Below are positions 29,700 through 61,616 of a DNA stretch of 64,000 nucleotides, one piece after another. Every line of letters starts with the position of its first letter. Position 1 is the first letter of the stretch. Source of the DNA: Azolla caroliniana (Eukaryota; Plantae; Polypodiophyta); contig JBHGNT010000022.1 of assembly GCA_043228905.1 (NCBI GenBank), positions 6,820,001 through 6,884,000 of the forward strand, written 5' to 3'. A model generated the notes under the pieces. The model was not told the DNA's origin. It worked only from the letters and a program-made list of their open reading frames with translations, and searched no databases. The position numbers and the translations under genes were made by a program.

Positions 29700-32600
29700 T
29701 GTAAAAAGTAGCGTGCGGAAGCAAGTATAAAGACAGAACAGAAGGGAGAATACTCAGGTTTAATGGAGAGCTTGAGCTTACACAGTATATGCAGTAGTGA
29801 CCGAGAGATTTTGAGAGGAGACACCAAAAGGAAGATATATTATGAAAGACAAAAAACTATACATATATGTGTTCAATGAACACTTTGTACAAGCCCTAGA
29901 AGGACTGACTAGAGTACTGACATTACTTCAATGCTCATTAAGAGCTCCTACACTAACTCCCAAATATAATCCTCACAGAATATCTTTCCTAATGGCCTAA
30001 CCGATCGGTCCCAACCGATCCGGTCCTCGGCTTCTTCAGCCGATCCGGCCGATGTTGAGCTTGTCTCTCAACACTCCCCGTCAAGCTCAACTCGAGGCTC
30101 TTTGGGATCTTCACAGCTCCGGTTCCTCCTGGCTTCACGGCTCGCTCGCGCTCCTCGACCTATTCGACTCTACGCGCTTCGACCCTTACGGTCGGCTTGT
30201 CTGCTTATGTGACCCTTATGAGCTCTTCTGCTATTGCGGTGTCGACACTTCTTCTGCTGCCTTTTCTTCCGCTTGGGCCTCGGTTGATTCAACGTGTCTG
30301 AATCAAACATCCGAACCGACTCGGCTACTTCTGATCGGTTTTCGCTCTCGTCTGAGTTGGCTGTCTCCAACTCGTCTTCGGTCTTCTCGCCCTTGATTGC
30401 GTCATCTCCCCCATGTGTGGTTGGCTTCGGCTCTCTCCTTCGGCTGCTCCCCTTCTGTCCGCTTTCAGACTTTTCCGTGGGTCCGCCCTCGGCGTCTTCA
30501 GCCGATCCGAAGTCGAACTCGACAACCAAGTCAACCGACTTGGACTCGGTGTTGCGGTCTCCGCTCCTTTCCTGCTGCCTTGCTTGGTCGTTCGGGACTG
30601 TTCTCCCCCTCAAGTATGGCACGTCGAGGTGACGCAACCCGAGCGCACCTGAGAATTGCCGCAACTTGTCCAGACCAAGCGGCTTTGTGAAGATGTCGGC
30701 AGTCTGCCGATCTGTTGGCACATACGGAAGTTCGACTTCACCGAAAAGGACACGCTCACGGACGAAATGGTAGTGCACCTCAATGTGCTTGGTCCGTGCA
30801 TGGAAAACGGGGTTCTTCGCGAGCTGGATGCTGCTGAGGTTGTCACAGTAGATCGTCGTCGGATCTGACACCTCCACCTCCAGGTCCTTAAGTAGCCGCT
30901 TCAACCATATGGCTTCGCATGTCGCGACAGCCGCTCCTCGGTACTCAGCTTTGGTGCTCGATAGTGCAACTGTCGGCTGCTTCTTACTGCTCCACGCGAT
31001 CGCGGCACTCCCGAGGGAGAACGCGTATCCAGACGTGGATCGGCGATCGACGGCATTGCCAGCCCAATCAACATCGGTGTAGCCGACTAACTGCGCGGTT
31101 GCACCGGTCCGATATAGCAGTCCGCGGTCCTTAGTGCCACTTACATACCGCAGTACGCGTTGCGCACACTGAAGGTGCTCCTCGGTAGGTCGCACCATGA
31201 ACTGACTGATCACTCCGACCGGATAACTGAGGTCGGGTCGGGTGATGGTCAAGTATATGAGGCTTCCGACAATTTGTAGGAACCTCGTTGGGACGCATAC
31301 CTTTCCCGTATCGGGACGAAGCTTGACGGTTCTGTCCAGAGGAGTCGAGACGGACTTGAAATCGTCCATCCCGAATTTGAAGAGCATACTCCGCACGTAA
31401 TGACGTTGGCTGATCAATATGCCTTCGGGGGTACGAATCACTTCGATCCCGAGGAAGTAATGAAGGTCCCCCAGATCCTTCATGTCGAACGATGCCGCAA
31501 GTTGGAGCTTCACGTGGTCGATTTCACCTAGGTCGGCGCCGGTGATGACCAAGTCATCAACATATAGTAAAATACTAACCAGTCCGAGTCGACCTTTCCG
31601 GATGAACAGGGAAGAGTCCAATTTTGACGTGACGAAGCCCATCCGACGCAGTTGTTGCGTGATCTTCGCGTTCCAGGCACGCGGGGCTTGCTTTAGTCCG
31701 TAAAGGAACTTCTTCAGTCGGCATACTGCCGAGGAGTTCGTTCCAGAGTCAAATCCGGGGGGTTGTACCATGTACACCTGTTCCTCAAGTTCACCTTGTA
31801 GGAACGCATTCTTTACATCCATCTAATGTAAGTGCCACCCCTTCGCCGCAGCTACTGCGAGCAAAACAGGGACGGTCGTCATTTTCGCGACCGGCGCAAA
31901 CGTCTCATCGTAGTCGATGCCGTGTTGCTGCGCGTAGCCCTTTGCCACTAGCCGAGCCTTGTACCGGTTAACGGAGCCATCGGTGTTGTACTTGACCTTG
32001 TACACCCACCTACACCCGATCGGTTTTACCCCTCTTGGTGCGTCAACGAGGTCCCAGGTCTCGTTCTCCGCCAATGCGTGCATCTCTTCCTCCATCGCGG
32101 CACGCCAATTCACGTCTTTAGCTGCTTCTGCGTACCTCTCCGGCTCACGCACTTCCGCTACACGGGTCATGTACGCATAATGATACGCCATGTACTCGTT
32201 GTATCCAAACCGCAAAACAGGATTCTTCTGGCGGGTAGATCGGCGTAACCTCGCATTAGCCGATGTCGAGGCCTTCTTGGTCGATGCAGACTTTACCTTC
32301 AAAGACCCGTCACCGGTTCCCTCGGAGTCGGACTCGCGTCGGTCTGACTCGTTCCTTTCCGTGCCGGAATCCGACACCTTCATCTTCCCTTTCTCTTTGC
32401 GCGTAAGCCGTCTCCTTGGCTTCCTGCGTAGGGAATGCACGGCCGAGTCTCCACTACTCGCCGGCTCTTCATCGGACTGGTCGTACCGACTCAGTCGTCC
32501 AATCGGTCCACTTAACCGGAGTGAAATCGGACTCTCTTCGCGGGTCTCGATTTCGGGCTCATCCGGAGGCATCTCGGCCTCGCTGACCTCATCGTCAGAG

Positions 32601-35328
32601 CTCGGATTGGAGTCGACGTTCGTAGTCGAGGGCAGGTACCAGGACGCGGACTCATCAAACACATCGTCGCGGCTGACATGCGCTTGTATGGTGCGAGGGT
32701 TATAGCACTTATAACCCTTTTGCTCGTCCGAGTAACCGACCAAGATGCATTTCTTGGCCTTTGCGTCCAGCTTCCTCCTTTTCTCCTCCGGTATATGCAC
32801 ATACGCAATGCTACCGAACACCCTCAAGTGTCGCAAGTTCGGCTTCGTTCCGAAATATAGCTCGTGGGCCGACAGTTTGTCTCCGATCCGGTTTTGGATG
32901 TATACCGCGGTTCTTACCGCCTCGGCCCAATAGAACTTGGGCAAGCTCTTCTCCTCCAGCATTGCCCGTGCCTCTTCCACAACTGACCGATTCTTCCTCT
33001 CGGCCACGCCGTTCTGCTCCGGCGTGTATCTGCAACTCAATTCGCGCTGAATTCCCATTTGTTGTAGATAACCGTTGAATTGACCGAAGAAGTACTCTTT
33101 CCCGCCATCCGACCGTAGGCACTTGATCTTTCGTCCCGTCTCCGTTTCCATGAACCCTTTGACGTCCCGAAAGCAGTCGAAGAGGTAGATCCACGTGTGC
33201 CGCGTGTGGTCGTCGATGAAGGAGACGAAATATCGGCTCCCGCCAAGACTAACGTTTTGTGCCGGCCCCCATACATCGGAGTCTATAAGGTCGAGCTTGT
33301 TCCGGCTCCGGTTTCACTCGTTGGGGAAAGGAAGTCCGTGTTGCTTCCCGAGCTGGCAGGCTTCACAAATTTGTGCCTTTCGGCCACTAAATTTGGGCAA
33401 TCCGAACACTATCTGTTTCGATTGCAAATCTTGAAGCCGCTGGTGGTTGACGTGGCCTATCCGCTTGTGCCACAAGTCGATGTCCGACTCGGATTTTTGT
33501 CCCTTCGCGAACATTGCGGTGCCGCCGTCAGTGGAGTCGAGGATGAACATCCTCCCGTCTCTGCGCCCTTGCGCAATCACACGACCTTCTTCCTCAATGA
33601 AGCACCTGAGGTGTGTAAACCGAACCTCCATCCCTTGGTCGACGATCTGTCCGACCGAGACCAAGTTTTTCGTGATTGTCGGAACGTGCAACATACTCAT
33701 GAGTTTCCCTTTCTGCCCGACATGGCTAAGGGGAACTTCTCCGACATTCGCGATAGGATGTGGAGTGTCGTCTCTTGTTGTGACTACTCCAGGTTGTATC
33801 GGTTTTTCAAGGTACGAGAACCACTCCTTATGGCTCGTCATGTGGTTTGACGCGCCGGAGTCTACGTACCACACCTCGTCCGATCTCGGGGTGCTCTGTT
33901 TCATTGAGTTTGCTTCGTGTCTCGACACGAAGGCAGACCCTTCTTCGGCTCTCCCGGAGTCTTCGGCGTAGTGCGATCGCTGCCGATTTCCCTTGTCAGT
34001 ATGTCTGGAGCCGTTTCCGGAACCGGTTCTCTCCGACTCGGCGCGCTTCTTCCAGCACTCACTTTCCCTGTGGCCTTTCTTGCCACAGTACCAGCACTCT
34101 GCGATGGCCTTCCCTTGCCGGTTCTCATGGCTTCGACTCCCCCTATTTCCGGAGGGTCCGGAGTTGCTGTCGGCATCACTTCGGTGGTGTCGTCCTTGAT
34201 CTCGTCGGCCACCTCCATTGCGCGCCGACTCATCTCTTCCTCCACGTATACGGGGCCTATCTCCCTCCGTGTACAATATTCTGTTATCGGTGTGCGTGCT
34301 TGTAGACGCACCCACGTGGTTCTCCTCTACCAGGAGCATTGACTGTAAGTCGAAAAAGGACGGCGTATTCTCCCGGGTACACACAGCCATTCGGAACGCT
34401 CCGAACTTCGACGCCAAACCTCCGAGACAGATCTGGACCATCTCGCTCTCCTCGATGTTCACCTCTATAGAGGCGAGGGAGTCGCAGATATCCTTGATCT
34501 TCGAGGTATAGTCTACCACCGACAAGTCGCGTTGTCGTAGGTTGCTCAACTCCTGTCGGAGCTGAAGCTTCCTATCTGTGGTGCTCGCGGCGAAAATCTT
34601 CTTCAGATTTTCCTATGCACCCTTCGGCATCTTTGCATCCCGAACATAGCTCAATAGTTGTTCGCCCACACACGACGCGAACCAGTATAATACCCTGCTC
34701 GCCGATTGCTCCCACGACGGAAAGTCTCTGTGTGTCGATGTGGGTGCCGCATCATTACCTCCTTCGACATAACTCTAGTAGCCGTGCCCGAGCAGGTACT
34801 GGTGCATCTTGTAGGACCAAGACGCGTAGTTGGTTCTGTCAAGCTTCTCTGTTGGAAGCGAGCTCGCCATGCCTCTATCCATCGTTCTTCTTGTTCTTCT
34901 TTGTCAAGCTGTGTCGGCTGCAGAGAGTTTCTCAACCCTCGCGCTCTGATACCATGTAAAAAGTAGCGTGCGGAAGCAAGTATAAAGGCAAAACAGAAGG
35001 GAGAATACTTAGGTTTAATGGAGAGCTTGAGCTTACACAGTATACGCAGTAGAGACCGAGAGAGTTTGAGAGGAGACACCAAAACGAAGATATATTATGA
35101 AAGACAAAAAACTATACATATATGTGTTCAATGAACACTTTGTACAAGCCCTAGAAGGACTGACTGGAGTACTGACAGTACTTCAATGCTCATTAAGAGC
35201 TCCTACACTAACTCCCAAATATATTCCTCACGGAATATCTTTCCTAACGGCCTAACCGATCGGTCCCAACCGATCCGGTCCTCGGCTTCTTCAACCGATC
35301 CGGCCGATGTTGAGCTTGTCTCTCAACA
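29700..35328 (-). mobile_element. Full-length copia element H, the youngest LTR element in the window
   Basis: 374-bp LTRs 29700-30073 and 34955-35328 (about 13 differences by eye); perfect TSD CATAA; tRNA-iMet PBS at 34941-34954; PPT 30074-30082. Confidence 0.96.
30170..34870 (-). pseudogene. Copia gag-pol polyprotein with a C-terminal extension; a few lesions
   Basis: CWYCGKKGHRESEC knuckle, WYVDSGASNHM, LRSDGGKEY, LLYVDDLVI, ADIFTKPL; TAG at 31823 (WHLH*MDV) and disruptions near 33170-33314 and in gag. Confidence 0.93.
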
Positions 35329-40910: not shown

Positions 40911-43135
40911 ACGAACACCTTGAGGTGCGACAAGATCAGATTCCTTCCGATGAGGAGCTCGTAGGGAGTTAGCTCATGGACTCCATTGGTGGTGCACCAG
41001 TTCATGAGATAGATCGTCGTGGATGCCACTTCGGCCCAATAGAAATTCGGCATGTGCTTCCAATGCATCATGGCGCGTGCTACCTCAAGTATTTGCCGAT
41101 TCTTCCTTTTGGCGACTCCATTTTGTTGGGGTGTGTGTCGGCATGAGAATTCTCTACGAATGCCTTCACTTTGGAGGTAGGAGGTGAATTCGTCAGAGAA
41201 GTACTCGTTGCCTCCATCTGATCGTAGGCATCGAATGTGCCGACTGGTTTCTTTCTCGACTTGGCCCTTGAGCTTTTGGAAGTGGGAGAGCACTTCACTT
41301 TTCTTCTTCATCGGGTAGATCCACGTGTAGCGCGAGTAGTCATCGATGAAGGTTACGTAGTATCGGCATCCGCCGATCGTCGGCGTTTGAGCCGGTCCCC
41401 ATACATCCGAGTGTATGACATCGAGGAGGCCTTTGCTTGCGGAGCTCTCCTTCGGGAATGGGAGTCGATGTTTTTTGCCGAGTTGACACGCTTCGCATAC
41501 TCGGTCGACTTGTTTCGACTCAAATGTCGGAAGTCCGATGATGACTCCCTTGGTTTGTATCACTCGAAGCTATTGGAGGTTTATGTGGCCGATTCTCTTG
41601 TGCCACAACTCGATGCTTGTCTCGGTTTCGAGACCTTTGGTGTACATTGCCGATTTCACCTCATTCGAATCAAGGATGAACATTCGGTCGTCTCTCCGTC
41701 CCTTAGCTATGAGTCGGCTATCTTTCTCAATGAAACAACCTTCGTTGTTGAAGCGGACTTGCATGCCTTTCTCCACGATTTGGCCGAATGAGACCAAATT
41801 CCTCGTTATTGTGGGCACGTGCAAGACATTCTTAATGCAAGTTTTCTCGCCTTCTTTCCCAAATGGGACATTGCCGATGTGCCGAATGGGGTGTGTGGTG
41901 TCGTCTCCCGTCTCTATGAAGCCGGGTCGATCTGGCGTTCGTAAATCACGAAACCACTCTTCGTGAGATGTCATGTGATGTGAGGCGCCGGAGTCGACGA
42001 ACCACATGTCTTTCGAGTTGGAGGTGCTTACGGAGTTGGAGGCCGACATAGAGTTCGCTCTATGCCTCATTACGAATAGTCCGCCGTAATCATCGTATTC
42101 GGAGTTGATGGCGTAATTCATGTGTTGTCGACTTGTGGAAGCCGACTCGCTTCTTCTTTTTTGGCATTCCTCCTCGCGGTGGCCGATTTTGCCGCAATAG
42201 TTGCAAGTTGTGGACCTCGTTTGCCGACCATGTTCAGCATGGAAGCTCCCCCTTCTTCTAAAGGTTCCTCGATGGCTTCCGTGAAGGTTTGAGTTCCCTT
42301 CGTGTGATGGGTCGAATTGACCTCTTCTACTGATGTGACCTCGGCCACCGTCCGAATTCGAGAAGAACATTTTTCCTTCCAACGTCTTGCTTTTGGTTTG
42401 GATGTGGTTCTCTTCGACCAATAGCATTGATTGGAGGTCGATGAATGAAGGCAGGTTTTCTCTTGCCAAGATTGCCGTCCATAATGGATTGAATCGTTGT
42501 GTGAGGCCGCCCAAGCATACTTGAACCATCTCGTCTTCGTCGACGTTTATTTTGATGGAGCCAAGAGAGTCGCAAATGCTCTTGATCTTGGTGTAGTCCG
42601 ACACGGACATGTCTTTTTGCCGAATGTTGTTCAACTCTTGTCAGAGTTGAAGCTTTCAGGCGGTCGTGTTGGCGGCGAACATTTTCTTTAAGTTCTCCCA
42701 CGCCTCTTTTGGCTTCTTGGTGTCTCGAATGTTGCTAAGCATGTGGTCGTGGACACATGTTGCCAAGCAATACATGACTCAACTCGCCGCTTGCTCCCAT
42801 GTTGCGTAGTCGGCGTTCTTTGAGTCGGGTCAATTTTCTTGAGCGTCGTTGATGTAGCTCCAATACCCTTGTCCGACGATGTATTGGGTCCTCTTGTACT
42901 CCCAAGATGAATAATTGCTCCTGTCTAGCTTTTCACTAGGGAGCGAGCTACCCATTTGTGTGTTCGTGTTGATTAGTGTCTTCTCTTCTTCTTCTTTTCT
43001 TCCTTCGATCACGTACACGTGCTACGTAGCGGCACTATGGTAGTCGATAACCGGATTTTGTCGTCAACGTTTCGAACACACAATCACGGAGTCGGTGGGC
43101 TTAGTGGATTTTCTAAACCACGCGCTCTGATACCA

Positions 43136-45604: not shown

Positions 45605-48475
45605 AACTGGTATCAAAGCAAGGTTGAAGATGGAAGGAGGTGTGAGCGGCTTCCCAGGCATGATAGTTCTAAACTCTCAGAACTTGTAGACTAGAAGATA
45701 AAGATGGAGGACCTTCTCATAGTCAAAGATCTCTACGAGCCAATCGATAGAGAAAAAATACCCACCGGGGTATTAGAGTTGGAATGGAAATTTCTTAACA
45801 AAAAGGTGGTGGCCACCATCTGACAATGTGTCGATGTTAATGTCCTTCAACATGTGGCGAACAACACAAATGCCTACAAGATGTGGCAAAAACTGTTAGG
45901 CCTATATGAGAGGAAGAACACCCTCAACAAAACATCCTTGATGAGAAAGATTCTGAGACTGTAATACAAGGACGGGGAAAGCATAGTTGAACATGTAAGC
46001 ACATTCATGGGGTATGTGAACCAACTTGCGGCAACCAGGTTTCCCCTTGAAGATGCAATGCAAGCCATCCTATTGTGCACCCTGTCGAACAACTAGGAGA
46101 ATCTGGTGATGACTCTCAGCACCTCGTATCAGGAAGAGAACTTTTCTCTACAAGCAGTAGAGACAAGTATCTTGAACGAGGAGACTAGAACGAAGGACAA
46201 GGGTTTCCAAGCCCAATCAGAGTCAAACTTGACTCAACACACCGGTAGAGGAAGGAACCGACAAAGGAGTCCACCAAGTAGAGAAAAGTCCTACTCTAGA
46301 TCCAAGTCCAGAGGTAAGCTAACATGCTTCTATTATGGAAATCCTGGACACTTTTAGAAGGACTGCCAACACCTCAAGAAGGACAAGGGTTTCGGAAATA
46401 ATGTCGAATCCAGGAAGATTCCTGATGAAAAGGGCACATCGGTTGTAGCTACAAGTATGGAGGAAATCCTATTCATTTGTGAGCAGGCAAACACAAATCT
46501 TGCAAGCGAAGAGTGCACCTGGGTAATCGACTCGGGTGCATCATTCCACATATCTCCATCAAGAGAATGTTTCTCGACTATGTAAAGATGGGAGATCATG
46601 GAGAGTGCAAGATAGCAAGCATTGGAAGTGGGTGCCTGATGATGTCGACTGGTTATCGACTGATGTTGAGGGAACTTCGGCATGTCCCCGATATCAGATA
46701 GAATCTAATATCGATTGGAAGGCTACAATGGTAGCTTCCGAAACGGCAAGTGGTAGTTCTGTTGTGGCAAACTCATAGTGGCATAAACACAGAAAGAAGG
46801 CACTTTGTATATGATGCATGCCTGACTAGAACTAGTGCACACAGATGTGTGCCATGTAGATGCTCCATCGCATTGAGGTGGACAATACTTCATAACGTTT
46901 ATTGATGACTATAGTCGGAAGACGTGCGCCTTTATACTGAAGTCAAAGGATCAAGTACTGTCAATGTTCAAGGAGTTCCAACCAAGAACCGAATGGGAGT
47001 CGGGTCGGAAGTTGAAGGTTGTTGTTGAGCGGACAAGCTCAAACAGATCCGGATCGGCTGAACAAGCTAGAGCCGAACCGGAGTCTGAAATGAAGAACCG
47101 GATCGGTGTCCGGATGGTATCTAGAACCAGGAGCCGGATCGGATTGTAACCAGTAGGCCGTTAGAGGCTAACAAATCCAGCCTAGTACGTAGGCATATTT
47201 TTGGGAGTTAGTGTTAGTCGCTCATATGAGCATTGAAGTACATGTCAGTACTTTCACGAACTTGTATAAAAGTGCTCACTGAGCACATTGTATATGCATA
47301 GTGTTATTTTTTTAATTTAGTTTATGCTTTTTGCTCTCTCTATCTCTCTTGTGTATTCTTTGTTCTTAAGCTTCAATTAAATATTCATTCTCTGTATTTA
47401 TTGTTGTAATCCGGCTAAGCCAGTTTTTCTACAAGCTTCCACACGCTATTCTTTTCACGGTATCCGAGTGCGAGGGTTGAGAACCTCTATTGCCGACAAC
47501 TGCTCGAAATGGACAAACCCTAATCACCAATAAAAGAACAAACCAAAAAGAGAAAGTATGGACAGAAATATGGCGAACTCGCTTCCTACGGAAAATCTTG
47601 ACCGGAGCAACTATGGTATAAAATGCACCAGTACCTGTTGGAACTTGGGGCATGGATACTGGAGCTACATGGAAGGAGCAAATGAAGCAACGCCGGGTTC
47701 GGCACATAAGGACTTCCCGGCATGGGAGCAAGGAGTGAGCAAATTACTTTATTGCCTCACATCTTGTGTGCACGACTAGATGCTCGGGTACATTAGAGAT
47801 GCAAAGTCATTGAAGGAGGCCTGGTAAAATCTTCGAAAGATTTTCGTTGCAAGTACCACTGCTCAGAAGTTGCAGCTCTGGCAAGAGCTCAACAGTGTCT
47901 GTCCATTGGACATGTCGGTCATCGATGACACCACCAAGTTCAAGGAGATCTGCGACGCGCTCGGCTCCATCAACGTGAGGGTGGACGAGGACGAGATGGT
48001 CTAGATCTGCATCGGTGGTCTAGCACAACGGTATGGGCCAATCTGGATGGCAATTTGCACCCGGGAGAAACCATTGTCCTTCTTCGACCTGCAATCGATG
48101 CTAATGGTCGATGAAAACTACGTGAGTGGGTCGAGGACCACTCAATCGGACATCCAGATGTTGTACACGGAGGCGGATCGGCCTCGTGGGTGTAGGGAAC
48201 GAAGTGGGTTGGCACGCAATGGAGGTAGCCGACAAAAGCAGAACCGGAGGCACAAAGATAGTCCCGACAGTAGTTTTGGACCCACCACTAGTAGGTGTCA
48301 GGAATAGTACTAAAGACGGAGAGGGAATTACTACTAGAGGTAGAGGAGGATGAGTACTATGAGTACTTAAGAGGAGAAGATGGTGTGGAACTCACGAGAG
48401 AGAGAGATAGATAGATAGATTATATTATCGTCTTCGAAGATCAAATATGACCTATGAGACCAAAAATATTACATT

Positions 48476-51400
48476 TCACGTGATACGTGTGAAAGTGAGT
48501 AGTGACTCTCGATGTTCAAGAACTTTACCAATGAATGTTGCAATCGAGAGTGCACATTGTGGTTGTGAGAGGAATTCATGCAAAGATTGGGCTCGATCGA
48601 AGAGATGTGGAAAGCATGGTCGAATATGATCAAAGGCAGAGCATTGTATCAAAGTGTGATACTCAGACTCGCGAACTTGTTTAGGGCAAAGTGTGCATAG
48701 CCGACCACTCTCATCACTTGTACCCCAACGCCCTGTTTCACATCGCAATGCATGTGAGCTAAGTCGCATGGAAGCAATGGTTCGAATGGCAGATAACGGT
48801 ATGGGCTCTAACATGTATGGATGTGTACGATTTCCCCGTTCCGCAAAGAATATGGTTTTGTAGTTAGGTGCAACATGTGTAGTATAATGTGTGAAGCGTG
48901 AGCCTCCACATTTGTCCCATGTCATGATACATTGGCGTTGCAAAAATGCCTCATTTACAGAGGAATCTAATGATGCATCATGAAGCAAGTGTCTCGCAGC
49001 CCATCTACCAAACCATTTTTCTATATCTTGCATCCAACCGGAACACAAAATTTTGCTTTTATGCGTCTTTTGGATCTTTTTGCTTGCTTCCCACGCAATT
49101 CTAGGAAGTCGATGTGAGGGACTTTTTTGAACCTTAAGCATGTATTCAACAACCCTTTCCATGGCCATGATCTCAATGGGAAGCGATCCCGTCTCAAGGA
49201 GGAGGAGGGTGTAGGGCGTTTGTTTCTTAACTTGTAGAAACTTGGTAAGAAAATGCTTTTGGACATTTTCAAACTCTTTCCACATAGACTTAGGGATGCT
49301 ACCGCCCCATACTTCCACCCCATAGAGAAGAACTGGTGTCACCAAAGTGTCAAAAAGATATTTCTTGAGGACCCAACACTTAATATCTCCAAGATTGCAT
49401 GTGTTCTCAAATGCATAGTATGCTCGTTTGCCTGCCTCTAAGCGGCGTGTAGCACATTCATTCCATCTATGATTTGAAGGAACTTCAAGGCCAAGATATT
49501 TGAAGCTTTCCACACATTCAAGTGGCTCATTGTTGTACATAATGCATGGTTTATCTCTTTTTTGGCTCTTCACAAGCATAATCTTTGTTTTAGAGCTATT
49601 GACACTTAATTTAGTATGCATGCAAAATTTTTCCAATGCCTTCATAAGCTTTTGTGCATCTCCTAAAGTATTTGCAAAAAGCACTACGTCATCTGCATAT
49701 AGCAAAAGCATAATCACAACATTCCCAATGGCAACTTCTTCAACACATTCTTCCTTTGCAAACTTGGTAACCATTTCTTCCAATTCATCAATGCATAGAC
49801 CAAATAGTGTTGGTGAGAGTGGGCATCCTTGCTTAACACCAATAGTGCTTTTGAAAAAATCTGAAAGTTTATCTTTCATGCGCACACAACATATAACCTT
49901 CTCATAAATTCGGGAAATTGCAAGCATATATTCACTTGGCACCTCAAGTTCTTCCATTCGCCTCCAAAGATGCTCACGAGGTACCATATCAAAAGCTTTC
50001 TTGAAGTCTACAAAGCAACAATATAAACCTTTACCTCTAAGGCGACTTTCCTCCATTAATACTCGAAGGGTGATAAGGTGATCAATGGTGCTATGGTGTT
50101 TCCGAAAGCCAGCTTGTCCATAAGCTCTCTTACCACTTTTTTCAGCCCATACACTTATCTTTGATTCCATTATACATCCAAATAGTTTTGCCATTAATGA
50201 GCCAACCATGATGGTTCGATAATTGTTTACATTATTTATATCTCCACCTTTATGTAAAGGTTTGATCCAATTTGTAGTCCAATCGTACGGCATACCATGT
50301 TGCAATGCATCATTAAACATATCGCTTATCCATATATGTGCTTCCTTTCCCGTCCATTTGAGCATTTCAACCTTTATACATTGAAGATCGCTTGCCTTTC
50401 GAGAGGCCAATTTCTTAAGTCCTATGCATATATCTTCAATTGTAAAGAAGGAAGGCATATGTGAAAGAGAACCATAACACATCATCTTTCCGGCAAGAGA
50501 TAACTCATATAAATTCTTACAATGCATAGACAAGTCGTGAAGAGTTAAGTCACCATAACTCTCAACACGTTTTCCCTTTAGATTTCCCCAAAATTTAGCA
50601 CATGCATGTGCTTTCTCTTGCGTTTGGATAAATTGTTGAGTAACTTCCCATATTCTTCTCTTTCTTTGAATAAGCCTTTTATACTCATGCAAATGCTTTT
50701 GGTAATTCTCTTTATCCTTAACTACATCCAAAACCATAAGGCACTTTCGAGCTTCACGACATTCTTTATCAAACCATTTTTTCCTAAGTTTCTTGGTGCA
50801 TTTCCAAGATGTGCGGTTGGTCGAAAAACATTTGTTTGTACATGAGAGAATGACTTTCTTGAAAGCTTCCCATTTGCATTCTAGTGTGGCACCATGTTGT
50901 ATCTTTGTCATTTGTAACATATCCTCAACCATCTTGGAATACATGGGTGCTCGCTTAAGGTTCATGCTCAAGTGCGGTTGTTTATTATCTTCAATAGCCT
51001 TCTCACAATCAAACCTATGCATACATTTGAGATCAATACATAAAGGCCTATGATCTGATTCCGGTGTCCATTCACCAAGTGAGAATTTATGTATACGATC
51101 CAAAATACCTTCGGAAAGTAGCACATAATCAATCACACTATTTCCGTTGTATTTTCTACATGTAAAACCATTAGTGTTGGGCCATAAGGAAATACCATTT
51201 GCAATAAGCAATCCGGTACTATTGCACATTTGTAGGAGTAGTTTCCCAAATTGGTCCGGATCTTTTTCATCGCTAGAAGAGCGGTTATACATTTGCATAT
51301 CCTCTTGCATCCTTGAGATATGTGGCATGAAAGATTCTTGTGAATCAAGTTGGAAACTTCTTGTACAAGCATTCATGTCACCAAAGACAATAACTTCCCC

Positions 51401-51850
51401 TTTGGATTTGAAATAAGCAATATCATCTTCTAGATTGGCAAACGGTTGATCTTTATCCAAACAAGCATAAAAGTTAGAATCTTGATGAGGAATGTAACAT
51501 CCAACAACAAAAGTGGGCAAATCATTAGGTGTTTCTATTTTGAGCCATATGTAGCATTTATTTTCATCATTTTTTATGATTGACACATATTTCTCTATTT
51601 CCTTCTTAATCAAACATGCCACCCCTCCTTGTCCTCTTCTTTGTCTTGGATTTTTCTTCCATATCAAAGAGTGTACATTATAGTTTCCTAAACCTTGAAT
51701 CCTTTGAGTATCATGCTCCCATGTTTCAACAAGAAGTGTGATATCCGAGTCATTGGTGAACTCCTCTATGCCAAATCCCGCATTCCATGGGTATCCATTG
51801 CAATTCCAAAAGCATAGTCGTAAAAGGCGTGGGTTAGTCTCATAGATCAC
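48476..51850 (-). CDS. LINE ORF2: APE endonuclease, reverse transcriptase, C-terminal CCHC zinc finger (1124 aa)
   Basis: WNCNG, LVETW, GDMNA, IDYVL, SDH (endonuclease); QAGFR, FVDFKKAFD, GVKQGCPLSP, LLYADD (RT); RLSSHALRCETGRW...CTLC...H...C (RTEX-type C-terminus). Confidence 0.95.
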   Translation of the reverse strand: MIYETNPRLLRLCFWNCNGYPWNAGFGIEEFTNDSDITLLVETWEHDTQRIQGLGNYNVHSLIWKKNPRQRRGQGGVACLIKKEIEKYVSIIKNDENKCYIWLKIETPNDLPTFVVGCYIPHQDSNFYACLDKDQPFANLEDDIAYFKSKGEVIVFGDMNACTRSFQLDSQESFMPHISRMQEDMQMYNRSSSDEKDPDQFGKLLLQMCNSTGLLIANGISLWPNTNGFTCRKYNGNSVIDYVLLSEGILDRIHKFSLGEWTPESDHRPLCIDLKCMHRFDCEKAIEDNKQPHLSMNLKRAPMYSKMVEDMLQMTKIQHGATLECKWEAFKKVILSCTNKCFSTNRTSWKCTKKLRKKWFDKECREARKCLMVLDVVKDKENYQKHLHEYKRLIQRKRRIWEVTQQFIQTQEKAHACAKFWGNLKGKRVESYGDLTLHDLSMHCKNLYELSLAGKMMCYGSLSHMPSFFTIEDICIGLKKLASRKASDLQCIKVEMLKWTGKEAHIWISDMFNDALQHGMPYDWTTNWIKPLHKGGDINNVNNYRTIMVGSLMAKLFGCIMESKISVWAEKSGKRAYGQAGFRKHHSTIDHLITLRVLMEESRLRGKGLYCCFVDFKKAFDMVPREHLWRRMEELEVPSEYMLAISRIYEKVICCVRMKDKLSDFFKSTIGVKQGCPLSPTLFGLCIDELEEMVTKFAKEECVEEVAIGNVVIMLLLYADDVVLFANTLGDAQKLMKALEKFCMHTKLSVNSSKTKIMLVKSQKRDKPCIMYNNEPLECVESFKYLGLEVPSNHRWNECATRRLEAGKRAYYAFENTCNLGDIKCWVLKKYLFDTLVTPVLLYGVEVWGGSIPKSMWKEFENVQKHFLTKFLQVKKQTPYTLLLLETGSLPIEIMAMERVVEYMLKVQKSPSHRLPRIAWEASKKIQKTHKSKILCSGWMQDIEKWFGRWAARHLLHDASLDSSVNEAFLQRQCIMTWDKCGGSRFTHYTTHVAPNYKTIFFAERGNRTHPYMLEPIPLSAIRTIASMRLSSHALRCETGRWGTSDESGRLCTLCPKQVRESEYHTLIQCSAFDHIRPCFPHLFDRAQSLHEFLSQPQCALSIATFIGKVLEHRESLLTFTRIT

Positions 51851-51856
51851 GTGTCC

Positions 51857-52726
51857 CTATTTGCCTACATTTCCATCTTTAAGCACATCCTTAACCTTGT
51901 TTTTCAATCTTTCTTCATATGCTTTACGACGAGCATTTTGTTGTGAGATAGTACGATCTTCACTCACAAAGCATTGTGTACCTTTGAGGTATACCCAACT
52001 ATTTTCGAGTATGATCCGCCGCTTTGTATCATCTGTCATTGTGCATACAATAGGCCTTTCTCCGGAGCGAGTAACACCATGTTTCCCAACTCGGTGTGCC
52101 CCATATACATTCACATCTGACATCCCATAATGCATGCTAAAAAATTCACCAATGGCCTTTCCAAGGGATGCGGGTCTTTCCATACTCTCTTCTTTAATCC
52201 CACGGACGACAATGTTCTTTGATCGTCGTTCGCGTTCTTTCAATTCTCGGACATCTATGCTTTCTATATTCTTCTCTTGATGCATCACATGCATATTAGA
52301 TGAGTTTGATAACACATCCCCACCACATACATCGGCCCATGACTTCGTTGTACATACATTTTTCATCTCACTTACATCCCGCCTCATCGTATCCAATTTT
52401 TCTTCTTTTAATGCTTCCTTTAACTCAATCTTGTTAAGGCGCTCATTTGTTTCAAATGATGCTCTTTTACATTCTTGAATCTCTTCTTGAAGTTTTGCAA
52501 CCACTTGTTTAAGACTTTCATTCTCAATGACAACACTTTGGAGCTTAGTATTCTCTTTCATTAACATCCTAATCTCTTCACCTTGCTTGTTTATGGTTTC
52601 TTGAAGAGAAATCAAGTGACTCATAAGCATTTTGTCCATTGCATTAGAATCGAGATTTGTTGGTGATCTCGGCTCATTATCAATCATACCCCCAAACTTT
52701 GCGGCGGTTTTACGAGTATTTGCCAT
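51857..52726 (-). CDS. LINE ORF1 (coiled coil plus RRM-like / Transposase_22-type domain)
   Basis: N-terminal heptads; ERERRSKNIVVRGIKE...AHRVGK...RPIVC...VSEDRT motifs typical of LINE ORF1p. Confidence 0.85.
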   Translation of the reverse strand: MANTRKTAAKFGGMIDNEPRSPTNLDSNAMDKMLMSHLISLQETINKQGEEIRMLMKENTKLQSVVIENESLKQVVAKLQEEIQECKRASFETNERLNKIELKEALKEEKLDTMRRDVSEMKNVCTTKSWADVCGGDVLSNSSNMHVMHQEKNIESIDVRELKERERRSKNIVVRGIKEESMERPASLGKAIGEFFSMHYGMSDVNVYGAHRVGKHGVTRSGERPIVCTMTDDTKRRIILENSWVYLKGTQCFVSEDRTISQQNARRKAYEERLKNKVKDVLKDGNVGK

Positions 52727-52989
52727 TGTACGGACAAACCGTACGGGAAAAGAGAGACAAAGAGGGAAGGAGAGAGAATGTACCTTTCACTCGATTTAGG
52801 GCTTCAAAATCTACCTTCCGTTTGAGGAACCGTGGGGCAAAGATGGCTGCGGATGAAAATGCTCATAACTTCTCGCCACGGTAACGGAATTCAGTAAATG
52901 AACATTCTTTAGAAAGCTCTCTCAAAGAGCTTTCCAACGAGCTATAGAACGTAGAAAACGATGGCCGGAGTGAACTTACAGAGAGCTTT

Positions 52990-53027
<38 letters not shown>

Positions 53028-56000
53028 GGCAATGGAAGATATATATTATATAAGAACAACTAGGAGTCTTAAGACTGGCGTTGAACCGAATTGCTTCGAA
53101 ATAGTGCCTCGTGCCTCTTTTTATTGTGTTGTCAAGAGTACTACTAAAGTTTCTAGAATGTTCCAAAGAAATCTAGAACATATATCAATTTTTTATAGTG
53201 AAATAATAAATGGAAACAAATATTCTTTGTGTTATAATGTATAGTTTAATGGTAGGGCTTTAACCCATGTGACACAAGGTCATGGCTTCAAATCTTCTTA
53301 AAGCCATACAATGCTATATCATGACACTATCCCCCCCCCCCCCCCCCTTAAGATGATGAGTATGATAACCTGGTTTGTCGGGGTATTGTCAATGGAAGTT
53401 CCAAATAAGAGCTCAAGTGTTTGCTACACTCTCGACTGGTTCCCAAGTACACTTGCTTGGACTAAAGCCTAGCCAATCGACCAAATAGTAGAGCTTGTTA
53501 CGAACAATCTTGGAATCAAGGATGGTAGGAACTTCGTACTCCGGTCTTGCTTTAAGCTCGATCGAGGGTGGAGGTGCTGTAATACGATTTGGAATAGTGT
53601 ATATGCCCATATATGTATGTGTCATGGAAATTTTGGACTACTTGAAGGTGACAAGAACCATTAGGAACATACAAGAGTTTCTTAGAGAATAGTAATCCAT
53701 CATGACATTCGAATTGTCGATAGTCCGTACCTCGTTGTTGCGACTATGAACAAGATGCCCGAGAGGGATTAATTTGCGCTAGAATGGCTTGAGCAAAAGT
53801 GTCTATCTTGAAGTCTTCACATATGGTATGGATAATGTGGGAATCCAATGGCGTGTCGAAAACCCACATTACTCGGAGTCGTGTCAGTCCCAGGATTACT
53901 TGCTTATGATTATCGAATGCTGGATCACCGGCACGAGTGTCGTGATAATGCAGCTGCCTTCCCTTACTTCTTCCTAGGACGATATGTAATTTTGAAGTCA
54001 AAACGAGCTTGACGTCAATTTAATACACAAGCATTCTGGAAGTAGGCAAGATTTTTGTGATCACTGAATATAGTGATTTGATGAGAAGATCCCTCTAAAA
54101 ATTGCCTCCATTGTGTAAAAGAGTTCACTATTGCTAATAGCTCCTTGTCATGTATTTCATTGTTTATTTCGGCGGCGTCAAACTTGCACGAGTGCAAATT
54201 CCACCTGGTTGCATCCAAAACTACATTATTCCAATTTTGCATAAAGACAATGTTCTCGAAATCATTTGAGTACTAATAGTACATGAGAATCATGCTCGTC
54301 TTGAGGCTTCGAATAAACTAGTAGATCATCCAAATAGATGATCAAATAGATATCCAAGAGATCTCACAATATATCATTTGCCATGTGCTGGAAGACTATT
54401 GGCACATTGGTGAGACCGAATGGCATAAATGTATACTCAAAGTGCCCATATCGGATGCGAAAAGTGGTCTTCCATTCATCTCCCACTCGGATCCGTATGA
54501 GGTTACATGCTCTTCGTAAGTCGATCTTTGTATAGAACTTTGCACCATTAATCCGTTCTAAAAGACTCGAGATAAGGGGAAGTGCATACATATTCCTGAT
54601 AGTGACCTTATTCAAGCCATAGTAATCCCCGATGAGACGAAGTGATCCATCGTTTTTCTCGACAAAGAAAATGAGTGCGCCGGTGGGAGATTTCGAATGT
54701 CGAATGAACTCGTTTGCCAAATTCTCCTCTATGTAGGCTCGAAGGACTTCTAACTCAGTTGATGACAAGTTGTACATCAGTCCCCATGGTGGCTCTTTTC
54801 TTGGTTGTAAATCAATGGGACAATCATACAGTCGATGATGAGGAAGAGTACTGGCTTGTACCTTATCAAACACGTCAACATAATGACGATACTTCTCTAA
54901 AAGTTGAACTATGGATTCCTCTTTAGTGGTGTTGGAAGGTTTTATTGATACTGCGAAAAGAAACATTGATTCCTTGCGTCCTTCTTCACGCAATTGATGT
55001 AGCAAAATGGTTGAAATTCTATGAGTAGATCCTCGGGTTTGTCGATACCGGATTTCTCTTGTTTTGGAATCTATGCCTGGGTTATGTAATTTGAACCATG
55101 GTAAACCCAAGACAATTGGGTACTCTGGACTACTAATTATATTAAATGATACTACACACACCAAATCAACAAACAGTTGTTACAGAATTGGGCGTAATTC
55201 CTATCCATTAAGCAAGAATTGGCTCCGGAATCTAAGAGTGCTAAGACATGTACTAGAGGGGTACTTTTTGTACTAATTGTTACTTGAGCTAAGAACACAT
55301 TGCTAACTTGTTTAGAGAGAATGGAACTACTAATGGGCTACACAAATCTAGGGCTGTCCAATCAAACGGCTCTTATTTTGGCTAGACGTAGTCATTTAAC
55401 TCTTGTTCTAACTAACTAAGGACTTCAAATTTGTTCAATAGACTTGGGCTACTAGTACTATTAGGACTATCAGAAACTCCTAATGAAATAGTCTCGGGTT
55501 TAGTACAAGCTACTATTTGATTTACCTATCTTCTTGGCCTATGTGGACAGTTTACTGCGATATGCTCTGGTCCTCTACAATAAAGTCATAATCGATTTGC
55601 TCAGCGTCATTGCTTTTCTTCTTCCAACAATGGTCCACGATGACGTGTGGTGTCGCTTTCCATTGGTGTTGGAGTATTTGCCGAAGATACATTGTATGAT
55701 TGCATTACAAATGGTTTTGCTGCAACCAAAGCATATCTGGGCTCCGAACTGTTCCTTGGCATTTGTAACTAATGTTCCGAACGTCATTTGAAAAGTCGGT
55801 TATCACATCGTACCGCTCGACTGATTGCCTTTGTGAGCGATTTTGGTTCTTCAGGGAAAGTCAAGAGTAAGTCTTTGACATCATTTCGTAGGCCATATTG
55901 AAATTGTTCCATCAATGCTTGATCATCCCAGGGGATATCGGAGATGACTAGACAGAAATCTGCAATGTAGGCGGAGGTTGGACGATCATCTTGATGTAAT

Positions 56001-57118
56001 TGTCGGATTTTGTTGGTTGCAATCCTTTTGCTGTAAGTATCTCCAAAACAGGCTTTAAACTCACTTATAAACTCTTCAAAATTATTTAGTAAAGGAGATT
56101 CCTTTTCTAACAATGGAGCGAACCATGCCAAGGCGAAGTGGCTTAGCAACGTGCCTACTAAACCCACTCGTGATGCAGCGGTGGCATATCGGGAAGAATG
56201 CATTTGAATAACTAATCATACCTTATTAAGGAATCCTTAGAACTGTGATCGTGTTCCATTGAATTTTATAGCAAGGCCGATCTTGGGTTCTTTATGAATC
56301 CCTTGAGTACTTGGTCCTTGTTGTTGCAATGCTACAATGGATCCTCTGGACTACTAATTATATTAAATGATACTAAACATACCAAATTAATAAATAGTTG
56401 TTACAGAATTGGGCAAAATTCCTATCCATGAAGCAAGAATTGGCTTCGAAATCTAAGAGGGCTAAGACATGTACTAGAGGGGTACTTTTAGTACTAATTG
56501 TTACTTCATCTAAGTCAGATTTTGTTGATTGTCATCCTTATGCTATCAGTAACTCCAAAACAAGCTTTAAACTCGCTTATAACTCTTCAAAATTATTTAG
56601 TAATGGAGATTCCTTTACTAACAATGAAGTGAACCATGCCAAGGCTAACCCGCTTAGCAACGTGCCTACTGAACCCACTCATGATGCATCGGTAGGATAT
56701 CAGGAAGGATGCATTTGAATGACTAATCGTACCTGATTAAGGAATCCTCTAAACTGTGATCACGTTCCATCGAATTTCATAGGAAGGCCAATCTTGGGTC
56801 CTTTATGAATCCCTTGAGTACTTGGTTCTTCTTGTTGCAATGCTACAATGGTTGCTTCAAGTTGTTGCACGCGTAACGCTAGCTCCCCATGTTGTTGTTG
56901 CGTTTGCTGCTTTTCTAAAGAGATTTGTTGAAGATCCCCAACAGCCATTGATTTTCTTGTTCCAATGCGAGAAACTTTTCTTTCAAGCATTGCAACTCCG
57001 AGAAAACGGATTTATATTCTTGAGCACTAACAGTTTCCACAGTATTAAAGAAAGGAGGGATAAGAGGCTTAGTATGAAGGAAGGGTGGAGTAAGAAGATA
57101 AAGAAATTTGGTTCAAAC

Positions 57119-57214
57119 TGTTAGGAATAGTACTAAAGATGGAGAGGGAATTAGTACTAGAGGTAGAGGAGGATGAGTACTATGAGTACTCACAAGGAGA
57201 AGATGGTGTGGAAC

Positions 57215-57260
<46 letters not shown>

Positions 57261-57569
57261 GGCAATAGAAGATATATATTATAAGGAGAAAGATACAAGA
57301 ACAACTAGGAGGCTTAAGACTGGCGTTGAACAGAATTGGTTCGAAATAATGCATTGTGCCTCTTTTTATAGAGTTGTCAAGAGTACTCCTAAAGTTTCTA
57401 GAATGTTCTTGCGAAATCTGGAATATACATCAATTTTCTATAGTGAAATAATAATGAAAACAATATTGTTTGTTTTACAATGTATAGCTTAATGATAGGG
57501 CTTCAACTTGTGTGACACAAGGTCATGGGTTCAAATCCTTTTAAAACCATACCATGCTATATCATGACA
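57119..57569 (-). repeat. 5' LTR of chromovirus A2 with (GA)n tract
   Basis: TGTTAGGAATAG...ATGACA; minus-strand TATA at 57370; self-priming-type PBS at ~57105-57116. Confidence 0.9.
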
Positions 57570-60500
57570 ACAGGGGGAGTCAAGGCAGCGCTGGACACTG
57601 GCAAGGGAAAACCGACACGGAATGTTGGTATTGTGGCAAGAAAGGATACCAGGAAAGCGATTGTTGGAAGAAGCGTGCCGATTCAGATAAATCCGGATCC
57701 GACAAGACCGGACAAGGGAACCGGCAGAGCTCGCACTACACAAAATGATCGGAAGGATCCAGAACCGGTTTAGGGTTAAAGGGTCAACCTCTGTGATGAA
57801 ACACAAGGTGAACTTGATGAAGAAGACCACTTCAGGATCGGAGGAAGTGTGGTATGTTGACTTTGGAGCATCAAACCACATGACGAGCCAGGGAGAGTGG
57901 TTCTCATTTTTTGAAAAGCCGGAGCAACCGGGAGTTGTCGAAACCAGAGACGACACTCCTCACCCTATCGTGCATGTCAGAGAAGTTCCCCTGATTCATG
58001 TCGGACAAAAAGGGAAGCTTATGAATGTGATGTCGGTCGAACAGATCGTCGACCAAGGGATGCAGGTGCGGTTTATGCACCTCGGGTGTTTCATTGAGGA
58101 AAATGGCTGAATAATTGAGCAAGGGTGCAGGTTCGAGAGGATGTTCATCCTCGACACCAACGACGTTGGCACCGCTATGTTCGCAAAAGGACAGAAGGTC
58201 AAATCCGATATCAACCTGTGGCACAAGCCAATTGGCCACGTCAATTACCAAAGGCTTCAAGACCTTCAATAGAAGCAGGTTGTTTTCGAATTGTCAAAAT
58301 TCAATGGCCGGAAGGCCCAAATTTGTGAAGCCTACCATATCGGTAAGAAACATCGACTTCTGTTACCCACCGAAAGAAACTAGAGCCGTACCAAGCTTGA
58401 TCTAATACATTCGGATGTATGGGGACCAACATAGAACATTAGTCTTGACGGAAACCGATATTTCGTCTCCTTCATTGATGACTATAGCCGGCACACATGG
58501 ATCTACCTCATCGAGAAGAAATGCGAAGTCTTCAACTATTTTCGGAACCGGCAAAGTCTTGTTGAATGGGAAACGGAGAGGAAGATCAAGTGCATGCGGT
58601 CAGATAGCGGAAAAGAATATTTTTTCGGGCAATTCCACAGTTATCTACAACAAATGGGAATTCGGAGAGAATTCAGTTTCAAATACACACTGGAACAAAA
58701 CGGTGTGGCTGAAAGGAAGAACCGGTCGATTGTGGAGACAGCATGGGCAATGTTGGAGGAGAAGAGCTTGCCCAAGTTCTACGGGGACGAAGCGGTTCGG
58801 ACAACCGTCTACATCCAAAACCGCATCGGGGATAAGGTGCTAGCACACAAGTTGTATTTCGGGCGGAAGCCGAATTTAAGGCACCTTAAGATATTCGGTA
58901 GCATTGCCTATGTGCATGTGCCGGATGAGAAGCGGAGAAAGTTGGACCCAAAGTTGGAGAAGTGCATCCTTGTCAGTTATTCACATGAGCAAAAGGGTTA
59001 TAAGTGTTATAACCCCCGAATAAAACAAGTTCGAGTGAGCCAAGATGTCGAATTCAATGAGTCGGCATCATGGTACTCTCTCCCGACTCCGATGTCTAAC
59101 TCTGACCTGATTCCAAAGAATGAGGCCACTAAACCCGAAACGATCCAGGCAGAAGATGAAGAAGGATTTGGTACTCTAGATGAGAGTTTGATCTCATTTC
59201 GGCTGAGCAGGCCGAATGAAGCGTTGAGTCGGAAGGACCAGCAAGATGATGAGTCAGTGAACAACAGAGACTCGGTCATGCTCTCTCCGTGCAAGGAGAA
59301 GGGGAAGAAGAAGATGCCAGAATACTCCATCGGCAGAGACGAGTCGGATCAGAGCGAATCCGACTCCGTAACGAATGAAGACGGACACTCGGGAACGAAG
59401 ACCGAGCCGGTCAAGAGGGCCTTGCAATCGGCGAATGCAAAGTTGCGTGGATCGACCCACCAAAAGAATCCCGTAAAAAGGTACAGATATAATGAATACT
59501 TGGCGCATCACTATGCATACATGACGAACAATGGAGAGCTGGAGAGCTACGCAGAAGCGGCAAAAGATGCAGAATGGTGTGCGACTATGGAGGAAGAGAT
59601 ACGGGCACTTGATGCCAACGACACATGGGAACTGGTTGACCCTCCCCGACATTGCAAACCAATCGGTTGCAAGTGGGTGTACAAGGTAAAGTATAATGTT
59701 GATGGTTTGGTCAACCAATACAAGGCCTGGTTAGTGGCCAAAGGGTATGCGCAGAACCACAGAATCAATTACGACGAGACCTTCGCTCTAGTAGCGAAGA
59801 TGAAAATGGTTCATGTGGTGCTAGTGGTTGTTGCGGCAAGGGGATGACATCTTCACCAAATGGACGTGAAGAATGTGTTTCTTCAAGGCGACCTTGAAGA
59901 ACAGGTCTACATAATCCAGTCGCCCGGTTTTCCGTCGAAGATGCACAAGTCGGCAGTGTGTCGGCTTAAGAAGTCCCTCTACGGCCTGAAGCAACCCCCC
60001 CGTGCTTGGAATTCGAAGATCATGCACCAGTTGCGTAGAATGGGCTTTGCGGCCTCAAAGTCGGACTCTTCGTAGTTCATCCGGAAAGTTCTGGAAGGTC
60101 CGATATATATCTTATTATACATGGATGATCTAGTCATCACCGAACCCGACCTTGCTGAAATCAGCCGAGTGAAGTCCCAACTGTGAGATGCATTCAAAAT
60201 GAAGGACCTTCATTACTTCCTCGGGATCGACGTTATCCACACCCCCGACGACATATTGCTATCTTAGTGACATTATGTGTTGAATATGTTGTACAAGTTG
60301 GGCATGACAGATTGCCGACCAGTCTCCACACCCCTCGAGAGAAACCTAAAGCTTCGTCCTGACTCCGGACCGGCCTGCAATGAGAAATGGTTTCGAAAAA
60401 AATTTGGAAGCCTCATTTATTTGACAATCACCCGACCCAACATTAGCTACTCGGTCGGAACAATGAGTCAGTTTATGGAGAAGCCAATCGTGGAGCACCT

Positions 60501-61616
60501 TTAGTGCGCGCACTGAATACTAAGGTATATAACCAGCACTAAAGACCGAGGACAGTTATACCAACACGGTATAACCGAAAACCTGGTCGGTTATACGGAT
60601 GTCGGAGATTCGTCGGATCAACGCTCCACCTCCGGATTCATGTTCTCTCTAGGTAGCGCAGTTGTTGCGTGGAGCGGCAAAAAGCATCCGACTATCACTC
60701 TTTCGAGCACTAAGGCTGAGTCTCGGGGCGCTACCATTGCCACCTGTGAAGCCATCTGGCTTTGATGGCTACTACAAGACCTCCGAATCAAAGTCCCAAC
60801 TCCGATCCTGATCTACTGTGACAACATGAGCAACATGCAGCTGGCCAAGAACCTTGTGTTCCATGCTCGGATGAAGCACATAGAAGTGCATTACCACTTT
60901 GTGCGCAAGCGCATCCTAAGCGGTGAGGTAGAACTCCGATATGTCCAGATAGATCAACAGGTTGCCGACATCTTCGCGAAGGCCCTTGGGACCGACAAGT
61001 TGCAACATTTTGTGAAGATGCTTGGTCTTCAGCATCTCGACATGCCACACTTGAGGGGGAGAATCGGGACTGATACGGGGAGAACCAGAACAGAAACTGG
61101 GAAAACAGGGGGAGACAAGAAGGAAGAGGAAGCCGAGTTGACTGAAGAAGACAGAACAAGCGGTGACGCGGTAGAGTCAAGAAGCACAGAGCCAACCGAA
61201 AGAAGAAAGCCAGGACCCGGATGTGGTCCGATGTGGTAAAGGGCCTAAAGATTGAGCACGAATTGGAGACAGCTAATTCGGACAAGAGCTAGAATGAGTC
61301 AAAGTTACCCGATTCGGAAGCGATGTTTGATTCAAAGGAGCCGGATCAACTAAAGGCCAAACGGACAAAGAGGCAGCGAAAGTAGACACAAACACGGAGG
61401 AACCGACGGGTCAAGATGCACCAAAGTCGTAACAGCAAAGAAGTTGAGAAGGGCCTTATGAGCAGACAAGCTGACCGAGAAGGTCGAGGAAAGTAGAACC
61501 GAACGGGTCGAGGAGCGCGAGCAAGGTGGGAGGATGCCAGGGGGAGACGGAGGAGAGGACCGGCTACCACAGACACATACACTGCAAGCCGACCTCAAGT
61601 TGAGCTTGAGGGGGAG

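Follow-up and report, generated by a model that had tools for sequence, protein, structure and literature searches.

An in-frame UAG and a predicted long-range helix with the 3' end suggest readthrough synthesis of ORF2 in a fern LINE retrotransposon

How can a retrotransposon make its reverse transcriptase (RT) when the open reading frame (ORF) for that enzyme lies directly behind a stop codon and has no usable AUG of its own? The question is raised by a full-length long interspersed nuclear element (LINE), an APE-type retrotransposon without long terminal repeats (non-LTR), of about 4.59 kb. It occupies 48405..52992 on the minus strand of a 64,000-nucleotide stretch of Azolla caroliniana DNA (contig JBHGNT010000022.1), here called the window, to which all coordinates refer. 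No second copy of the LINE is present within the 64-kb window. The explanation that we favour, with somewhat more confidence than doubt, is that the ORF2 enzyme is made by occasional readthrough of the UAG that ends ORF1, stimulated by a predicted 17-bp helix with the 3' untranslated region (UTR). It starts from what can be read directly: the two ORFs share a frame, the UAG between them is family-wide, most copies have no usable AUG, and the two arms of the helix are complementary.

In this copy the minus strand reads GTA GGC AAA TAG GGA CAC GTG ATC TAT GAG across the junction, with the single in-frame TAG at 51859-51857 (51857..51859; context AAA-UAG-GGA). The ORF1 frame is open from 52786 to 51860; from its first ATG at 52726 it encodes 289 amino acids and with the TAG spans 51857..52726. 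ORF2 is open from 51856 to 48479, has 1126 codons, and ends in a TGA at 48478-48476 (48476..51856 with the stop). An earlier note on this DNA had described the two ORFs as sharing one frame across a lone TAG, and this holds on the minus strand, where no other stop lies between them. The same note placed the first methionine of ORF2 about 155 codons in, within the GDMN motif; the motif is correct and the residue is 161 (ATG at 51374..51376), GDMN itself beginning at 159. Met161 follows the WN (17), ETW (44), and YIP (121) motifs and lies deep within the APE fold as modelled, so it should be unable to start a working endonuclease. A further AUG, out of frame, is found 13 nt past the stop at 51841-51843, inside the helix arm described below, and is implied in divergent families too; it would trap scanning ribosomes that bypass the third codon after the stop (codon +3, at 51848..51850).

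Is the stop a property of this copy or of its family? The LINE family is abundant in sequencing runs of several organism labels. Variants were read over 51812-51896 in four of 21 listed runs, X1, X14, X15, and X17 (111, 38, 59, and 8 contigs, respectively); the runs served as sources of copies only, depth in them means contig depth added up and does not measure copy number, and X1 may be the source of the window itself. In none of the four runs, which carry four organism labels, does another letter reach 3% of depth at any base of the TAG. From 16 metagenome loci, four were excluded (L008, L012, and L014 as chance pattern matches, and L003 as truncated below the junction). TAG stands at the aligned place in 10 of the 12 sister loci that cover the junction, L005 being unclear and L006, a decayed copy, having lost it. 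CAG or TGG, which the earlier note had named as the mark of a single-ORF element, occurs in none of these 12.

Codon +3, which also forms the first three bases of the helix arm, is GTG in five of the 12 loci, ATG in five, TTC in one, and unalignable in one. ATG accounts for 17%, 25%, 1%, and 0% of depth in the four runs, and the opposite CpG change, CAC to CAT, for 4%, 1.7%, 0.2%, and 90% in the same runs. GUG makes up 99–100% of depth at this codon in two runs. GTG is the main form at codon +3 and is not specific to this copy. The earlier statement that ORF2 has no AUG start is therefore true of this copy and only partly of the family, as ATG stands at codon +3 in five of 12 loci and in up to 25% of depth. 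One finding that the note had named as refuting its reading, ATG in place of the GTG in sister copies, is seen in part, namely in a minority of copies that includes L011. Because of this minority, initiation at codon +3 remains a serious rival to readthrough.

More distant relatives were sought with protein queries in which the junction was read through as X. They brought up ORF1 homologues whose end coincides with that of ORF1 here, as well as decayed fragments that extend across the junction. In the P0169 family, whose ORF1 is 34% identical, the layout appears to be as in the window family. The intact ORF1s of this family have QNA as their last residues; in three decayed copies the frame stays open to the WN strand of the endonuclease, with Tyr, Leu, or Trp at the place of the stop. 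The stop should thus be UAG, since only UAG has Tyr, Leu, and Trp codons as one-base neighbours. A three-frame overlay of the decayed-copy translations points to UAG followed by CAA, codon +3 being ACG; from codon +3 to codon +6 the silent third bases match those of the window family. None of 300 shuffled second-frame peptides fitted this junction, and for P0235 the same three-frame approach gives a result consistent with the known DNA of the window family. All readable families are in frame with a UAG, the method being one that sees in-frame families only.

Other relatives bear on the junction as well. A third junction of this kind would fit P0228 in just one of the frames. An Adiantum gene model, which may be spliced, has Gln-Gly-His-Thr at the place where the sister ORF1 stops (P0048, P0052). 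For three long relatives the predicted start falls within the endonuclease: at residue 65 in P0002, at residue 29 in P0095, and after the WN strand in the ORF of a Psilotum transcript, P0099. Such late calls would be expected of gene callers if the junction has no usual start. Among longer ORF1 proteins, a weak search found one chimeric-looking gene model and no natural fusion; the Riccia model P0149, in which ORF1-like and endonuclease-like parts are joined, was rejected as a natural fusion as it has no WN strand. A scan of prokaryote genomes gave two matches, taken as chance, and viral contigs gave none.

What could make such a stop leaky? The earlier note had pointed to murine leukemia virus (MuLV), in which a structured signal follows the UAG-G. 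The sequence after the stop folds no better than its shuffles (z of +0.08, +0.13, +1.81, +2.18, and +1.49 in five folds) and has no match in Rfam, and a local stimulator of the MuLV type was rejected on these grounds, in folds computed without pseudoknots. The silent bases after the stop are conserved, and a pairing partner was therefore searched for. The segment 51850-51834 (proximal arm, 51834..51850) is predicted to pair with 48447-48463 (distal arm, 48447..48463), 3370 nt apart, in 17 uninterrupted pairs (14 Watson-Crick and 3 G-U). The proximal arm begins after a 6-nt spacer (51851..51856; Gly-His if translated) and spans codon +3 and the out-of-frame AUG. The distal arm lies in the 56-nt 3' UTR (48420..48475) and starts 13 nt past the ORF2 stop.

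The predicted helix stands out from what the element otherwise offers. At −23.5 kcal/mol it is the best of 42 uninterrupted helices of at least 13 bp in the element, the next having −20.4. None of 4421 other 30-nt windows reaches 17 pairs with the UTR (maximum 15), and none of 4362 other 56-nt windows exceeds 9 pairs with the arm. Only one of 5000 shuffles of the arm binds the UTR equally well. The minimum free energy structure of the 3510-nt RNA contains all 17 pairs. When bound to the UTR of this copy, the majority sequence of the family scores −28.1, this copy −25.5, and the ATG form −28.7. The distal arm overlaps a modest local hairpin of the 3' UTR (z of −2.06 in 40 nt and −1.17 in 69 nt), so that the helix and hairpin states would be mutually exclusive.

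Readthrough was one of two routes suggested by the earlier note; the family-wide UAG and its context lend it support, and the predicted long-range helix would take the place of the local structure of MuLV. Type III readthrough signals carry the hexanucleotide UAGGGV, UAGGUA, or UAGGAU and are weak without a downstream structure (PMC13517186). The hexanucleotide UAGGGA falls within this definition, the downstream ORF is in frame, and the stop is kept in relatives; the pairing with the 3' end that marks the tombusvirus form of the type is present by prediction only. The adenines before the stop are also of interest, as A at −1/−2 is a 5' stimulator of readthrough (PMC3159437). In the divergent family the putative UAG-CAA, with A at +6, fits the type I motif UAG-CAR-NBA, and UAG-CAA contexts leak without structure (PMC13517186).

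The proposed mechanism would proceed as follows. The helix would form in the cell and be located at the mRNA entry channel while the UAG is decoded. A near-cognate tRNA would then occasionally decode the UAG, giving a 1416-residue ORF1-ORF2 fusion in an amount of a few percent of ORF1p. Enzyme would be obtained from RNAs with an intact 3' end only. The elongating ribosome would melt the helix, and the 3' UTR would thus become free for its local hairpin and for reverse transcription in cis.

Several findings weigh against readthrough or against the helix that is thought to stimulate it. Peptide sequence alone somewhat favours the pairing, as 368 of 20000 synonymous recodings (1.8%) still give 17 pairs. 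Four variants lie in the arm or next to it; they preserve or strengthen the pairing only given an unchanged partner, and they are of the commonest kind of mutation. The distal arm is known from this copy only, the loci including no sister 3' UTR. Published stimulators begin 7–12 nt past the stop (PMC3159437), and the 6-nt spacer is slightly under this range. The junction of the second family was put together from protein fragments of separate decayed copies, not from DNA, and families with ORF2 out of frame are invisible to the fragment method, so that only in-frame families can appear. Codon +3, moreover, is AUG or a near-cognate codon (GUG, AUG, ACG) in every readable family and lies 14 residues before the WN motif, where the methionine of a LINE ORF2 is expected; P0001 and P0114 are called from exactly this codon. 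In the two runs in which AUG has 17% and 25% of depth, it is 4 and 14 times as frequent as the opposite CpG change, a sign that an AUG subfamily has been amplified, and L011, a stop-free contig of high coverage, has ATG at codon +3. Finally, the LINEs that have been studied, L1 and SART1, use reinitiation, which in SART1 requires a downstream structure (PMC5972666).

Much of this is what would be seen if ribosomes terminated at the UAG and reinitiated 6 nt further on, at codon +3, to make a free ORF2p of 1124 amino acids. Codon +3 would then have been AUG ancestrally, with GUG or ACG tolerated, and the helix would gate or damp the restart or tether the 3' end nearby. We consider this unlikely on balance, albeit to be taken seriously. 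An AUG or near-cognate codon does lie within a few bases of the stop (GUG or AUG at 6 nt, and apparently ACG in the divergent family), and such a codon is found wherever codon +3 could be read, with two gene models starting there and an AUG subfamily that appears amplified. Translation of human L1 ORF2 is reportedly AUG-independent. Termination-reinitiation has been proposed for both L1 and SART1, and in caliciviruses it tolerates changes of the start codon and ignores the Kozak context (PMC5972666). However, reinitiation requires neither a shared frame nor a UAG, and both appear to be kept in families that are 34% identical in ORF1. The helix covers the start codon rather than standing behind it and would hinder initiation there. 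AUG, GUG, and ACG are also the transition changes that a helix tolerates. In addition, the ATG of old decayed copies may be CpG decay, with 29 CA versus 19 TG at other CpG sites; a tree of 11 copies, with one of eight branches supported, does not polarise AUG versus GUG, and GUG is nearly fixed by depth in two runs.

Two side observations concern the same segment. In X14 and X17, one contig each carries a tandem repeat of the junction (51855-51896) with a shortened spacer after the TAG; the two are probably one old shared copy. Were this repeat active, with its ORF2 in a different frame from ORF1, reinitiation would gain support. Separately, the 5' truncation point lies no more than 30 nt from the junction in two of 13 sister loci, L003 at 925 and L010 at 1364 (window equivalents 51837 and 51862). 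One of these truncations falls at the end of the helix arm, and since the search pattern lies nearby, ascertainment could account for them.

The helix might also be real and serve packaging, cis-preference, or template choice, with ORF2 made by basal leakiness of the UAG or by weak unassisted restart. LINE 3' UTRs are recognised by their RT, and the overlap of the distal arm with the 3' UTR hairpin would suit such a role. UAG-CAA contexts are leaky even when unstructured (PMC13517186). This reading is improbable, as nothing would require a packaging signal to be placed 6 nt past a stop and type III contexts are weak when downstream structure is lacking (PMC13517186). Very improbable is a 3' splice site at UAG|G, by which splicing would remove the stop and place ORF2 behind an AUG further upstream. 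The junction does have the formal pattern YAG|G, and splicing would account for the fixed UAG-G too, but pyrimidines make up only 30% of the 40 nt upstream (U 22%), the second family apparently has UAG|C, and the helix is left unexplained. That a single-ORF element has suffered a nonsense mutation in this copy can be dismissed, as the decayed copies that read through do so with differing residues (Tyr, Glu, Leu, Trp, or Gln), each a single base change away from UAG, ORF1 homologues end at the same place, and the TAG is without a variant of at least 3% in all four runs.

How does readthrough stimulated from the 3' end compare with known systems? The closest likeness is to the tombusvirus carnation Italian ringspot virus (CIRV), in which p36/p95 readthrough at a type III UAG depends on pairing of a proximal with a distal readthrough element (PRTE-DRTE) over about 3.5 kb to the 3' end; its authors tie this long-range pairing to quality control and cis-preference (PMC3234231). 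The LINE and CIRV have in common the UAG-GGA type III context, an in-frame polymerase gene past the stop, a pairing over about 3.5 kb to the 3'-terminal region, and a distal arm that overlaps an alternative local hairpin, and the same logic of 3'-end quality control and cis-preference is proposed for both. In CIRV, however, the proximal element belongs to a local stem-loop of large size, and the long-range pairing is aided by a second one, whereas the LINE has no predicted local structure and its 17-pair arm itself starts 6 nt past the stop. The host also differs, being a retrotransposon, and the pairing in the LINE is a prediction.

Among retroelements, MuLV gag-pol shares with the LINE the UAG-GGA, the order of a structural protein followed by an RT polyprotein, and a structure a few bases past the stop; its structure is a compact pseudoknot 8 nt downstream, in contrast to the LINE, in which no local structure is predicted by folds without pseudoknots (PMC13517186, PMC3159437). 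Readthrough from ORF1 into ORF2 has been suggested in print for the Group 3 non-LTR retrotransposons of Paramecium tetraurelia, which form a ciliate-specific clade with a zinc-finger ORF1, unlike this LINE; the available part of that paper mentions no stimulating signal, long-range pairing, or experiment (PMC5405496). Human L1 and SART1 resemble the LINE in being bicistronic, in the L1-type fold of ORF1p, in an ORF2 with APE and RT, and in low-level ORF2 synthesis coupled to the ORF1 stop (PMC5972666, PMC3894237). In L1 a 63-nt spacer separates the ORFs, those of SART1 overlap at UAAUG and have a local structure downstream, and both are read as reinitiation (PMC5972666, PMC3894237). The present LINE differs from both in having no spacer stop, mostly no AUG, and a long-range arm. 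The available portions of PMC4559204 and PMC11203168 contain nothing on the junction. In the literature covered, which does not extend to most subscription journals and Repbase reports, neither a long-range ORF2 signal in a LINE nor this fern family was found.

The element is a LINE by every feature tested, including APE followed by RT in ORF2, an RNA-binding ORF1, and a repeat tail. ORF1 consists of a coiled coil, an RNA-recognition motif (RRM), and a C-terminal domain and is L1 ORF1p-like. No Pfam family matches it above its cut-off. Its structure model has a predicted local distance difference test score (pLDDT) of 82.6, and the top ten Foldseek matches of this model are all human L1 ORF1p (best E 1.7e-5); for the RRM the template modelling (TM) score against human L1 ORF1p is 0.71 by target length. 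ORF2 contains the APE endonuclease (PF03372, residues 24-254, E 3.6e-13), the RT (PF00078, residues 543-792, E 1e-32), and a C-terminal Cys/His motif. A single-sequence search of the PDB found no match for the endonuclease, but a profile search matched it to the human L1 endonuclease 1vyb (E 3.8e-11), and its model gave a fold match with E 9.4e-13. In RT and C-terminal motifs the element presumably resembles RTEX (RTE-X). A motif search for RTEX references, covering 13 of 33 supplements of PMC10294476, gave no match. The homologues that carry a genus name are from Adiantum, Psilotum, Selaginella, and Riccia and point to a fern as the likely host. P0204, filed under Enterobacter cloacae complex sp. 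GF14B on a 2-kb contig, is 74% identical to the C-terminal part of this ORF1 and is likely plant DNA within a bacterial assembly.

Upstream of ORF1 is a 5' UTR of 266 nt with two upstream AUGs (52727..52992), and the 3' end carries a short tandem-repeat tail, (ATCT)4 (48405..48420), that continues into the (CT)n target. The ends of the LINE were set against empty copies of its host LTR at 57119-57569 and 7090-7515; both fall within a (CT)n tract and are exact to a few bases only. The part of the host LTR on the 5' side of the LINE (52993..53326) ends in the (CT)n target tract and is 86% identical to 57223-57569, and that on the 3' side (48296..48404) is 93% identical to 57119-57242. The LINE thus sits in the (CT)n tract of an LTR of which empty copies exist elsewhere in the window. 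It has no LTRs itself, and besides the (ATCT)4 tail its family has many 5'-truncated copies (L001, L003, L010). In run X1, summed contig depth, a rough measure, is about 660,000 near the 3' end and drops to 23,000–60,000 at the 5' end. The truncated sister copies L001 and L003 likewise start right after (CT)n, and one run has a loose end of (AG)n at 52770. It is possible that (CT)n microsatellites are a target of the family (window 52993-53023 and 48396-48420; L001, L003). The remaining window consists mostly of broken and nested gypsy- and copia-like LTR retrotransposons (30173-34612, 41573-42640, 54364-56215, 57571-61063), of which the copy at 30173-34612 on the minus strand has three adjoining open stretches of 432, 496, and 550 codons.

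How LINEs translate ORF2 and why LINE proteins act on their own RNA are considered open questions (PMC3894237). Tentatively, and with doubt a shade ahead of belief, we propose that a whole branch of LINEs, in ferns and perhaps well outside them, obtains its RT as an ORF1-ORF2 fusion through readthrough of the tombusvirus kind, which depends on the 3' end of the same RNA. The helix would then be an RNA switch that combines proofreading of transcript integrity, cis-preference, and handover of the 3' UTR to reverse transcription. If this is true, the switch would be a second, structure-encoded answer to the problem of LINE ORF2 translation. The element is a compact test case: it has a single stop and a single helix of 17 bp, each arm of which can be disrupted and then restored. 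Should readthrough be confirmed, a long-range recoding signal of plant RNA viruses works in a nuclear retrotransposon too, and the active enzyme of the LINE is an ORF1-ORF2 fusion. If instead reinitiation proves true, restart at non-AUG codons gated by the 3' end would be new too.
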